Shown here: one piece after another, positions 1,528 to 6,669 of the stretch
How positions within the stretch are numbered: position 1 is the stretch's first letter
How the letters are laid out: every line of letters begins with the position of its first letter
Source of the DNA: a virus
Taxonomy: Duplodnaviria; Heunggongvirae; Uroviricota; Caudoviricetes
IMG/VR virus record: IMGVR_UViG_2740892211_000014
Length of the DNA: 12,554 nucleotides
Direction: 5' to 3' (one strand)
Position numbers and translations under genes: made by a program
The notes under the pieces: model-generated
Databases searched by the model: none
What the model saw: the letters and a program-made list of their open reading frames with translations, nothing else
Told to the model about the DNA's origin: nothing

Positions 1528-2202
1528 ATGAAAACAATCCATGACATCCGGCGGTCTAACGCCAGAAAACTGAGAGATGGTGTTGGCGGGAATTCTTCCT
1601 TTGCCACTATGATTGATCGCGAGCCAACCCAGACCAGCAGGTTTATGGGAGATGGTGCTACTAAAAATATCGGTGACAGCATGGCACGACACATCGAAAA
1701 ATGTTTCGACCTGCCTGTCGGATGGCTCGATCAAGAACACCAGACAACGAACATCACAAAAAAACCTGATGTTTCAATCACTAATAAACAAATCACATTA
1801 GTCCCTGTCATATCATGGGTACAGGCCGGAGCATGGAAAGAAGTTGGATATTCTGAGGTTGATTTGAGCACAGCAGAAACGTATCCCTGCCCTGTACCCT
1901 GTGGGGAAATGACTTATATCTTGCGGGTGATAGGTGATTCAATGATTGATGAGTACCGCCCGGGAGACATGATTTTTGTCGATCCTGAAGTACCTGCCTG
2001 CCACGGTGACGACGTTATTGCATTGATGCACGATACAGGTGAAACCACCTTCAAAAGGTTGATAGAAGATGGGACACAGCGTTATCTCAAAGCGTTAAAC
2101 CCAAACTGGCCTGAGCCTTACATTAAGATCAACGGTAATTGCTCTATAATTGGTACAGTGATTTTCTCAGGAAAACCAAGAAGATACAAAATCAAAGCCT
2201 AA
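1528..2202 (+). CDS. CI-type phage repressor with C-terminal S24 (LexA-like) autopeptidase domain
   Basis: 224 aa. C-terminal region contains VISWVQAGAW and RVIGDSM ... TFKRL, the Ser/Lys dyad context typical of S24 repressors. N-terminal region resembles the phage CI-repressor HTH domain. Divergent from the cro-like gene across the operator region. Confidence 0.8.
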   Translation: MKTIHDIRRSNARKLRDGVGGNSSFATMIDREPTQTSRFMGDGATKNIGDSMARHIEKCFDLPVGWLDQEHQTTNITKKPDVSITNKQITLVPVISWVQAGAWKEVGYSEVDLSTAETYPCPVPCGEMTYILRVIGDSMIDEYRPGDMIFVDPEVPACHGDDVIALMHDTGETTFKRLIEDGTQRYLKALNPNWPEPYIKINGNCSIIGTVIFSGKPRRYKIKA

Positions 2203-2214
2203 TCAATGTTTATG

Positions 2215-2237
2215 AACCTGCTTCGGCAGGTTTTTTT
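2215..2237 (+). terminator. Rho-independent terminator after the cI-like gene
   Basis: AACCTGC-TTCG-GCAGGTT stem-loop followed by T7 (2231-2237), 13 nt after the cI stop codon. Confidence 0.7.
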
Positions 2238-2241
2238 ATAC

Positions 2242-2269
2242 TTGACAATGTACCTTTGAGATACATAAT
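2242..2269 (+). promoter_or_regulatory. pL-like sigma70 promoter with embedded operator
   Basis: TTGACA (2242-2247), 16-nt spacer, CATAAT (2264-2269). The spacer and -10 overlap TGTACC-TTTGA-GATACA (2249-2265), matching the OR half-site consensus. Points toward the + strand early-left genes. Confidence 0.55.
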
Positions 2270-2395
2270 GAACCCAAGCGAAACAACGAACAGGCAGGAC
2301 GCCCACGAAGTAGCCGCCTGGGGCATATGAAGTCCAGGATGATTCGTTGAGTCATGTTGTGCCACTAGGCACTCATGTTAAAGCAGGTGTATGAA

Positions 2396-2671
2396 ATGAA
2401 AGTCCAGATTTTAAACAATAACTGTGAAGTCGTTTGGTCATACGACATAGCCGCCCCTGTAGATCAGAGCGGCGATAGCTGGACCAATGAGAAACATCAG
2501 ATTATGGCTGGAGTTGTGTTCTCTTTACGCCGTGCTTTGGAACAGGCTGAAGTATTTCCATCAGACCCTGAATGGAAATGGCCTTTTTCTATTTGCCCAA
2601 ATTCGGAGAACACATTTCAGAAAATTGGTCAGAAAGTCGCACTCGAAGAGCATCAGCCAACTGTTTCCTGA
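2396..2671 (+). CDS. Hypothetical small protein, first ORF downstream of the pL-like promoter
   Basis: ATG at 2396 preceded by AGGTG (2385-2389) at 6-nt spacing; an in-frame ATG at 2375 lacks a Shine-Dalgarno. 91 aa, no recognisable family. Its 3' end overlaps the convergent ORF 2589-2834 by 83 nt, so the true stop or the reality of one partner is uncertain. Confidence 0.4.
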   Translation: MKVQILNNNCEVVWSYDIAAPVDQSGDSWTNEKHQIMAGVVFSLRRALEQAEVFPSDPEWKWPFSICPNSENTFQKIGQKVALEEHQPTVS

Positions 2672-2834
2672 TTTTTTCAGGTAACTCGTCGGCATCGCAG
2701 AAACAACAACGCTCGATCATGTTGAAAGCCGATTCGTAGAACTGTTTCTGCTGAGTGTCGCTGAGACAGGAAAAGAGCGACGTTACGATGATTTTATTAA
2801 TTGCATTATCAAGTTCTTTTTCATCAAAAGTCAT
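2589..2834 (-). CDS. Hypothetical 81-aa protein, antisense to the early-left operon
   Basis: ATG (2834-2832) preceded by AAGGAA (2846-2841) at 6-nt spacing. Translation MTFDEKELDNAINKIIVTSLFSCLSDTQQKQFYESAFNMIERCCFCDADELPEKIRKQLADALRVRLSDQFSEMCSPNLGK is protein-like; no family recognised. Confidence 0.45.
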   Translation of the reverse strand: MTFDEKELDNAINKIIVTSLFSCLSDTQQKQFYESAFNMIERCCFCDADELPEKIRKQLADALRVRLSDQFSEMCSPNLGK

Positions 2835-3074
2835 TTGATTTTCCTTTTATGTATACGGGCTTAAAAGGATACCACCGAGCCTGAAGTGGTGAAAAGACAG
2901 GCACATAACAGCTAAGTATTTTCAACCAAAGAGAATCCTTAGCGTTGTGGTGAATGCGGCTCAGCGCACGCGGGTTAAGGTTGAGGCTGACAGTCGACCT
3001 TCTGTGGATACCCACCCGTCTGGTGTGCAACCTTCGCCAGGCACCGGGAGGCACCCGGCACCACAACTTTATGC

Positions 3075-3134
3075 TGTGTGTAGTCCTGGCGGTACCAGTT
3101 TGTACCCTTGCTTCCGGCTGGTACCGCTCTTTTT
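3075..3134 (+). ncRNA. Candidate DicF-like prophage sRNA ending in an intrinsic terminator
   Basis: Perfect 10-bp stem GCGGTACCAG (3089-3098) / CTGGTACCGC (3118-3127) followed by TCTTTTT. TGGCGGTACCAGTTTGTACCC resembles the 3' half of E. coli DicF (recalled as TGGCGGTATCAGTTTTACTCC ... CCGCC-TTTTT). Lies in an ORF-free stretch downstream of the immunity region, as dicF does in Qin. 5' end undefined. Confidence 0.3.
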
Positions 3135-3135
3135 A

Positions 3136-3222
3136 CAAAACAGAGAAGAGCATCACCGGACGACGGGCTCATAACCCAATCCATCCGGGCGGCGGTCACC
3201 GCAGGTGTTCTTCTCTGTTTTG
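3136..3222. repeat. 14-bp perfect inverted repeat flanking a 59-bp GC-rich spacer
   Basis: CAAAACAGAGAAGA (3136-3149) and TCTTCTCTGTTTTG (3209-3222) are exact reverse complements. Starts immediately after the terminator T-run. Spacer contains further short GC stems (CCGGA...CCGGG, CACCGC). Confidence 0.6.
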
Positions 3223-3347
3223 TGGAGAAACTAACCGCCCCTGCGGGGGCATCTATTGAAACGTAATTGCTTAATAATCGCCGGATGGCGAGGGCTTCCT
3301 TTTCCCAAAATTCAGCGCAGTGCAGCGCATATAAAGTGGAGAACGAA

Positions 3348-5889: not shown

Positions 5890-6669
5890 TTGATTACAAT
5901 TACATTCGACAAACTAATCACCTACATATCTTCAGTTGGTACTTTCATTTCAGCAATTGCTGCATTATATGCAATATGGTTAACGATATTTCAAAGAAGG
6001 CTCTCTTATAAACCCAATTTAGTGATAGACACTTTAAATATCAAGATGAATGTTAACGATTTCAACGGTTTTCATGTTGATATCTTACAAGCCCCTACGC
6101 TTCCACAAACAAAATTTTCAAACATAGGATTGGGGGCGGCAATTTCACTTAGATATCATTGGGATTTTAATTATAAAAAAAACATAAATCTATATTTAGA
6201 GTTGTTTTCGAAAAAATTCAAAAAAGAAGATAAATCTTTTACAACCGACTCCCAGTATGGAATATTCAAAATAATAAAAGAAAGAAAAGTATATATGTAC
6301 AATACTTTATCGACACCTTACGATATTGATTTTTCGTTACCATATAGTATAGATAAGAAGTCAAAAAACATTTTTGTACCAACCGCGGCAATTGATATTC
6401 TATTGAATATAGCATATCTTTCACATAGACTTAAATTAGTCGGTTCTTCATCATTCACTGGTCCAAAATTAATTATTGAATATCAAGATATAGAGGGTAA
6501 AACTAAAAAAGTCACTTGGCAAACAAAATTGGAACGTGGAGTGGCACGTTTCAGTGGTGATAATATGGAGGCAGATTTTGCACTACGGTTTACACCTGTA
6601 CCAGAGAAATGGACTACAAAAGGTCTAGAGAAGATACGCAAAAGCGCCGCAAACGCCATGTTCAGATAA
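5890..6669 (+). CDS. Hypothetical membrane-anchored protein, AT-rich cargo (moron) gene between int and att
   Basis: 259-codon ORF with TTG start; first in-frame ATG is codon 53. N-terminal hydrophobic segment ITYISSVGTFISAIAALYAIWLTIF predicts one TM helix before a ~220-aa Lys/Asn/Ile-rich domain. Markedly AT-richer than all flanking genes. No family recognised. Confidence 0.55.
   Translation: MITITFDKLITYISSVGTFISAIAALYAIWLTIFQRRLSYKPNLVIDTLNIKMNVNDFNGFHVDILQAPTLPQTKFSNIGLGAAISLRYHWDFNYKKNINLYLELFSKKFKKEDKSFTTDSQYGIFKIIKERKVYMYNTLSTPYDIDFSLPYSIDKKSKNIFVPTAAIDILLNIAYLSHRLKLVGSSSFTGPKLIIEYQDIEGKTKKVTWQTKLERGVARFSGDNMEADFALRFTPVPEKWTTKGLEKIRKSAANAMFR

Follow-up and report, generated by a model that had tools for sequence, protein, structure and literature searches.

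Two small convergent genes downstream of a pL-like promoter: uncharacterised protein families in a known lambdoid architecture

Directly downstream of a pL-like promoter in IMG/VR virus record IMGVR_UViG_2740892211_000014 (Caudoviricetes), two small open reading frames (ORFs) point towards each other and overlap by 83 nucleotides (nt) at their 3' ends. We refer to the whole stretch of 12,554 nt that was analyzed as the window, and all coordinates without another label are positions in it. The arrangement raises two questions, namely whether both frames are genes and, if so, what a gene lying antisense to an early phage transcript might contribute there. Both ORFs are protein-coding and under purifying selection. 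As to their role, we favor, with a probability of roughly 0.55, the reading that they form an excludon-type module of an early gene and a lysogen gene, encoding two small acidic proteins. The features that define the locus are as follows.

2396..2671, + strand: the + gene, encoding an acidic protein of 91 amino acids (aa); it is SfV orf33 and a member of PHROG family phrog_3195, and is called by the Prokaryotic Genome Annotation Pipeline (PGAP)
2589..2834, - strand: the - gene, encoding an acidic protein of 81 aa; it is a member of phrog_3311 and lies antisense to the early-left operon, in the slot equivalent to that of sieB
2589..2671: the 3' coding overlap of both genes, 83 nt

Coding status of the two frames

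The + ORF extends from an ATG at 2396 to a TGA at 2669-2671 and the - ORF from an ATG at 2834-2832 to a stop at 2591-2589, which agrees with the coordinates and the overlap given by an earlier sequence-only reading of this DNA. The plausible Shine-Dalgarno sequences that it assigned to each ORF are also borne out: AGGTG at 2385-2389 lies 6 nt ahead of the + start, AGGA at 2845-2842 lies 7 nt ahead of the - start, and both the Shine-Dalgarno sequence and the start of each ORF are retained in all diverged homologues. A second in-frame ATG for the + ORF is found at 2375, but the start at 2396 is favored because homology with other phages breaks at 2394 and because MKVQ(I/V)L, with its own Shine-Dalgarno sequence, is the conserved start in all lineages. 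Existing annotation is inconsistent at this locus. PGAP annotates the + ORF alone in E. coli, one phage record has only the - ORF, NCBI annotation in Klebsiella, Salmonella and Yersinia has only the - ORF, and one metagenome gene caller reports both.

Most of the seemingly divergent matches in our first two protein searches turned out to be copies of one and the same E. coli DNA (~97% nt identity) that differ by frameshifts or indels (e.g. copy L007), and were unusable as independent lineages. In L007 (1713-2000, 97% identical) a 1-nt deletion at window-equivalent position 2550 frameshifts the + ORF and leaves the - ORF intact, and two other copies carry single-base indels within the - ORF (window-equivalent 2791 and 2801); these indels could be assembly errors or real decay. 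Truly diverged copies were obtained from L003 and then, via L003, from Klebsiella, Salmonella and Yersinia prophages. A scan of genome contigs with back-translated patterns found no relatives.

The 439 nt from start codon to start codon align in seven lineages with no gaps or indels, and both ORFs are open in all seven, down to 64% nt identity (64-77% among the four deepest lineages). Codon-position counts were taken over these four deep lineages. For the + frame in 2396-2588, the ratios of variable to invariant sites at codon positions 1, 2 and 3 are 31/34, 17/47 and 50/14 (p=3.4e-8), with a ratio of non-synonymous to synonymous change (pN/pS) of 0.29. For the - frame in 2672-2834 they are 21/34, 15/39 and 44/10 (p=2.4e-8), with pN/pS 0.24-0.27. 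Every other frame in these two intervals has stops. Since each non-overlapped part shows the periodicity of its own frame and the other frames there are interrupted by stops, both ORFs are protein-coding and are maintained by purifying selection. The earlier suggestion that one of the ORFs could be spurious therefore fails, and the comparison of conservation and dN/dS frame by frame, which had been proposed as the check, finds both frames conserved outside the overlap.

The overlap itself has a different character from its flanks. The conserved core of the + protein comprises residues 1 to ~66 (2396 to ~2596) and ends with WPF-S/D, almost exactly at the stop of the - ORF. In the phase of this overlap the third codon position of each gene is the second of the other, and the two frames therefore compete directly. 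In 2604-2671, which is overlapped in all lineages, pN/pS is 0.64 for the - frame vs. 1.46 for the + frame, a difference that at the level of sites is only a trend (p=0.14-0.18). In 2672-2761, which lies under the longer + ORFs of other lineages, the minimum number of changes per site is 0.27 at both the first and the second - position and 0.77 at the third, and pN/pS for the + frame is 1.43, a pattern that clearly belongs to the - frame. For the + tail, pN/pS is 1.4-1.5.

The length of the + ORF varies among lineages, from 91 aa in the window to 107, 122, 127 and 162 aa, and its stop in the window arises from an Ile-Arg codon pair (ATC AGG) of the - gene. When the codons of the - gene were reshuffled synonymously, a + ORF at least as long as the natural one was obtained with P=0.15-0.87. 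The open + tail therefore needs no selection, and the idea that a long tail is held open by selection is ruled out. The + tail inside the overlap appears unconstrained and the 83-nt overlap looks like a by-product of a + ORF that runs on until a chance stop. The conserved feature is that the two cores meet tail-to-tail without intergenic space, rather than a dual-coding segment. The overlap emphasized by the sequence-only reading is thus present, but it is not itself conserved, the tail being unconstrained and the stop moving between 91 and 162 aa.

Both proteins are acidic, with isoelectric points (pI) of 4.8 (+) and 4.7 (-). The + protein has 7 lysine and arginine residues vs. 12 aspartate and glutamate residues, and no arginine-rich motif. 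Values for the grand average of hydropathy (GRAVY) are -0.36 and -0.44 for the two proteins, the - protein being hydrophilic at -0.36, and three helices are predicted for it in the secondary structure of an AlphaFold2 model. Each protein matches its PHROG profile over the full length, the + protein phrog_3195 (E=1e-68 over 1-98/98) and the - protein phrog_3311 (E=3e-55 over 1-81/81); neither family has an assigned function in PHROG.

Genomic setting, from the pL-like promoter to the antisense slot

Every - homologue examined (L003, L292, L295, L297-L299, L304 and L306) has a + homologue opposite, and the pair is held together in six deep lineages, which come from prophages of Escherichia, Klebsiella, Salmonella and Yersinia, with the - homologues annotated by NCBI in the last three genera. 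When 1.84 billion representatives were searched with a profile for remote members, only 20 matches in all were obtained. In one of these (L306) the pair is again downstream of a cI-type repressor. In another (L304) the phage region is a different one, with holin and lysozyme genes instead of cI next to the pair; here too the + gene is co-directional with its neighbors and the - gene antisense. One split copy was seen, L169, and this is what a deletion has left. Among complete E. coli genomes the pair occurs in 551 of 5426, always at an identity of at least 97%. The pair is thus present in roughly a tenth of complete E. coli genomes, yet annotation pipelines report only one gene, not always the same one. 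The selection found on both genes corrects this annotation and provides a concrete pair for tests of exclusion or early-lytic function.

The surroundings of the pair comprise the following features.

Immunity region, - strand: a cro/ymfT-like gene
1528..2202, + strand: a cI-type LexA/S24 repressor gene (ymfK-like), whose product controls the promoter ahead of the gene pair
2214..2233, + strand: the intrinsic terminator of the repressor gene (terminator scan), with an 8-bp stem followed by TTTTTATA
2242..2269, + strand: a pL-like sigma-70 promoter directly after the cI terminator, TTGACA, 16 nt, CATAAT (11/12 matches)
2276..2395, + strand: a conserved early-left leader with a stem-loop at ~2317-2338 (CCUGG..CCAGG; minimum free energy fold)
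2871..2902, - strand: a 33-nt motif, GCCTGTCTTTTCACCACTTCAGGCTCGGTGGT, directly 5' of the - gene; a candidate promoter and/or hairpin or pseudoknot
2922..3136, + strand (the pL strand): a GC-rich element resembling the small RNAs (sRNAs) STnc100 and KilS, with a strong intrinsic terminator at ~3088-3132 (fold)

The window is the end of an SfV/e14-like lambdoid prophage and adjoins csiD-lhgO-gabD-gabT. The repressor is named "ymfK: LexA family protein" by PGAP and is called cI in the SfV record; its 3' end and the downstream stretch match e14 cohE/ymfK, and its terminator is likewise annotated in SfV and SfII. The spacer of the pL-like promoter contains an operator-like palindrome (ATGTAC..GATACAT, 2248-2266) related to palindromes of the cI-cro intergenic region. 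In e14 of E. coli K-12 the 3' end of the repressor, the terminator, the promoter and the leader are the same save for a few substitutions, and the same pL-like promoter stands ahead of e14 ymfJ. The position of the pair directly downstream of a pL-like promoter, as first read from the DNA, is thus confirmed. The leader is common to phages with differing first genes, and its stem is found in three compensatory versions: CCUGG/CCAGG in the window, CCCGGU/ACCGGG in e14 (L172) and CCAGC/GCUGG in L306 (3130-3070, -). An invariant GGCAGGACGCCCACGAAGUAGCC precedes the stem. The stem-loop could serve in antitermination, as a nut- or put-like site that allows the terminator at ~3130 to be passed.

The element at 2922-3136 scores 42.1 bits against the Rfam model of STnc100 (RF02076), below the gathering score of 47, with E=1.7e-7 and over the full model length. 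An association of the STnc100 family of sRNAs with prophages has been described (bioRxiv 10.64898/2026.05.13.724894); PasD and KilS are further prophage sRNAs. The element also shares sequence with the Rac sRNA KilS (b4833) and with the "ymfH" region of e14; PGAP annotates it as a frameshifted pseudogene and the K-12 annotation as ymfH. A query of 2200-3300, which spans the element, matches 2821 of the 5426 E. coli genomes vs. 551 for the gene pair alone. As the + gene is the only ORF between pL and the terminator at ~3130, no other protein is encoded by the immediate-early left transcript when this is not antiterminated. The - gene lies wholly inside the stretch from pL to the terminator, antisense to the early-left operon as the sequence-only reading had it. 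A terminator scan found none between the two genes, and the transcripts of the convergent genes would therefore have to overlap.

The 33-nt motif lies 37 nt from the ATG of the - gene. It is also found upstream of sieB in lambda (lambda 34397-34429) and in Rac (L301, ~2567-2600). It is contained in 136 phage records, those of lambda and of P22-like phages among them, hardly any of which annotate it. In a survey of IMG/VR contigs anchored on the motif, we distinguished 23 cassette classes on its pL-proximal side; 19 of them have an antisense ATG at a distance of 35-42 nt from it. The cargo of these cassettes is diverse, comprising YmfI-like, zinc-ribbon-like, BssS-like and YdiH-like proteins and many without any match; Pfam scans of the other antisense cargo were mostly empty, giving BssS-like, YdiH-like and weak Lar or zinc-ribbon matches. 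SieB-like membrane proteins are encoded on the same side of the motif, with longer leaders, and sequence varies on both of its flanks. As the survey shows, the place occupied by sieB in lambda is in general use, within sharp bounds, for antisense cargo of many kinds beside the 33-nt motif, and prophages can therefore conveniently be mined there for accessory or defense genes expressed in lysogens.

Two motif copies ~900 nt apart were seen in L292 (1976 and 2944) and in L295 (2071 and 2945). Since each copy appears to precede a gene in antisense orientation, these prophages may contain cargo slots in tandem. The antisense moron STMMW_20121 of ST64B (PMC7067206) was considered as an occupant of the same slot and rejected, as no cassette lies between the ST64B leader and its STnc100-like element and the locus tag is elsewhere.

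The motif may be read in two mutually compatible ways, as a promoter with an extended -10 or as an RNA hairpin or pseudoknot. Read as a promoter of the - gene, it would have a -35 hexamer TTCACC at 2893-2888, a 16-nt spacer and an extended -10, TGgTATCCT, with the hexamer at 2871-2866 and a start predicted near 2859; TATnnT is retained in most cassette classes and is TATACT in L306. Read as an RNA structure, it would pair ACCAC with GUGGU and GCCUG with CAGGC. Compensatory variants are two only, GCCCGG/CCGGGC in Rac and GCCGGG/CCCGGC in Yersinia (L292). The covariation is not significant, 145 of 500 shuffles reaching the observed score, and the motif was accordingly rejected as a proven pseudoknot.

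A 259-aa ORF (5890-6669, +) lies between the integrase gene and csiD and has no match in Pfam, NCBIfam or PADLOC. The equivalent integrase-adjacent place in strain KSC1031 holds a gene of the DarT1-associated NADAR antitoxin family, so that cargo close to the attachment site varies among otherwise near-identical prophages.

A proposed excludon-type module and its rivals

In the reading that we favor, the repressor would keep pL off in the lysogen, and the - gene would be transcribed from its own candidate promoter in the 33-nt motif, by analogy with sieB of the P22 prophage. The - mRNA would run antisense across the whole + gene towards pL and could end at a hairpin of the leader, located at 2306-2290 and followed by a T-rich tail. 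Upon induction, transcription from pL would cross the - gene and silence it by polymerase collision and double-stranded RNA, according to excludon logic, and the + protein would then be the first early product. Judged by where its gene lies, the - protein most likely acts in the lysogenic phase, as an accessory factor for exclusion or defense. The + protein is most likely an early-lytic partner or antagonist of the - protein, or else an independent early accessory protein. Of the roles first proposed for an embedded antisense module, a moron or exclusion-type gene is thus reasonable for an occupant of the sieB slot, while a toxin-antitoxin assignment finds no match in Pfam, NCBIfam or PADLOC.

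Several observations weigh against the excludon-type module. The candidate - promoter is a sequence reading only (4/6 and 4/6 matches, with the TG of an extended -10) that falls below the threshold of a simple scan, and no good -10 is found at the corresponding place of the motif in lambda or Rac. Searches of Pfam, NCBIfam, PADLOC and PDB sequences gave no significant match for either protein, so that no function can be assigned, and the AlphaFold2 models (predicted local distance difference test scores of 58 and 53) are too poor for fold searches. Co-inheritance could trivially reflect the physical overlap of the genes instead of functional coupling. Finally, polymorphism within E. coli (7 synonymous vs. 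12 non-synonymous differences in the + gene, 6 vs. 9 in the - gene) gives weak signs of purifying selection and is too shallow to settle coding status.

The strongest competitor, though rather unlikely in our judgment, is a self-contained defense or immunity system of the abortive-infection or toxin-antitoxin type, in which the - protein would harm the cell or block a superinfecting phage and the + protein would neutralize it, sparing the phage's own lytic growth. The strict co-inheritance in six deep lineages and two genomic contexts would suit such a system, as would the small size of both proteins and their location at a cargo hotspot with very diverse antisense genes. The same slot holds sieB in lambda and Rac, and P22 escapes its own SieB by means of Esc. 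On the other hand, neither protein resembles any toxin, antitoxin or defense model in Pfam, NCBIfam or PADLOC, and the convergent, non-operonic order is atypical of toxin-antitoxin pairs that act through protein-protein contact. Type I systems combine a hydrophobic peptide with a non-coding antisense RNA; here both partners are conserved hydrophilic proteins, neither of them hydrophobic like type I toxins (GRAVY -0.36 and -0.44). For type II systems and known anti-phage defenses, we found no model matches and a convergent gene order.

A bolder combination of these ideas would make the pair a previously unrecognised two-protein switch for exclusion and self-immunity, with convergence as its regulatory device. 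The - protein, made in the lysogen only, would block incoming phage, and the + protein, as the sole immediate-early product of pL, would disarm it; the 33-nt motif, found also with sieB of lambda and P22, would act as a transferable promoter or RNA element and so define a pan-lambdoid slot, with dozens of unrelated antisense genes placed at 35-42 nt. With all of its parts taken jointly, we regard this proposal as unlikely.

It is less probable again that the two are functionally independent accessory genes placed back-to-back by genome compactness, the + gene being an immediate-early gene of the host-takeover or anti-restriction type and the - gene an unrelated moron, with antisense effects incidental. 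Reshuffling does occur at this site: the 105-aa + gene of L003 is accompanied by a different antisense gene in L249, and L222 has a ymfJ-like remnant with an antisense gene that is not ymfI. The overlap without a selection signal for the + frame would also fit independence. Against it, the pair of the window was never seen split save in the deletion remnant L169, and it has moved jointly to a different phage region in L304.

That the + protein is an N-type antiterminator, acting on the leader hairpin to pass the terminator at ~3130, is very improbable. Its gene does stand in the position of N, as the only ORF of the immediate-early left transcript, and the leader does contain a covarying stem-loop. 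However, the protein is acidic (pI 4.8) and lacks an arginine-rich motif, e14 and many other phages combine the same promoter, leader and downstream terminator element with unrelated first genes, and the pair in L304 is away from any cI/pL region. The sequence-only reading had already remarked on a non-basic protein in the N position, correctly in view of its pI, and elsewhere that position is filled by other genes such as ymfJ. Lastly, the disagreement among annotation pipelines might suggest that one ORF is a non-coding artifact of the coding sequence on the opposite strand, but this is already refuted by the third-position periodicity of each frame where the other ORF is absent (p ~1e-8 each) and by the stops in the alternative frames.

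Comparison with known lambdoid systems

The excludon-type module that we propose has close parallels in lambda and Rac, where a repressor-controlled pL is likewise followed by a first early gene and then by a convergent antisense gene that abuts or overlaps its 3' end, with the same 33-nt motif 5' of the antisense gene. In lambda, N (35438-35037) and sieB (34482-35036) abut at their 3' ends, whereas the pair in the window overlaps by 83 nt. N is the first gene after pL, as the + gene is the first and only ORF before the terminator in the window, but the + protein is unlike lambda N. In Rac, where the early genes are ydaG-ydaF, ydaF and sieB overlap by 4 nt and are followed by the sRNA KilS; on the pL strand of the window the pair is followed by the KilS/STnc100-like candidate sRNA with its terminator. 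The distance from motif to ATG differs, being ~50-70 nt in lambda and Rac and 37 nt in the window. The products of the antisense genes differ as well: SieB (PF14163) is a membrane protein of ~160-190 aa, whereas the - protein has 81 aa, is predicted to be soluble and helical, is hydrophilic, and has no match in Pfam and thus none to PF14163. Expression of sieB from the prophage has been reported for P22 (PMC10883804).

The cryptic prophage e14 of E. coli K-12 offers a similar comparison, with ymfJ as the sense first gene, ymfI antisense to it, a 63-nt 3' overlap, and the same motif and downstream "ymfH" element. Homology with YmfJ and YmfI was rejected by profile comparison (hhalign probabilities <1%), and YmfI belongs to a family of its own in NCBIfam, NF051477, to which the - protein has no match. 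In e14, ymfJ mRNA rises late in the SOS response (log2 fold change 4.8) and the YmfJ protein is detected and increases, while ymfI is upregulated far less (PMC11002266). Both ymfI-ymfJ and sieB-ydaF are listed as convergent excludons on the basis of RNA-seq (PMC12288877). The pair in the window shares with excludons the convergent genes and the lack of room for a terminator between them; the overlapping transcripts and mutually exclusive, reciprocal expression by which excludons are defined would be expected from the arrangement in the window. The architecture is thus a known lambdoid one, and what is new here is the two uncharacterised protein families that fill it.

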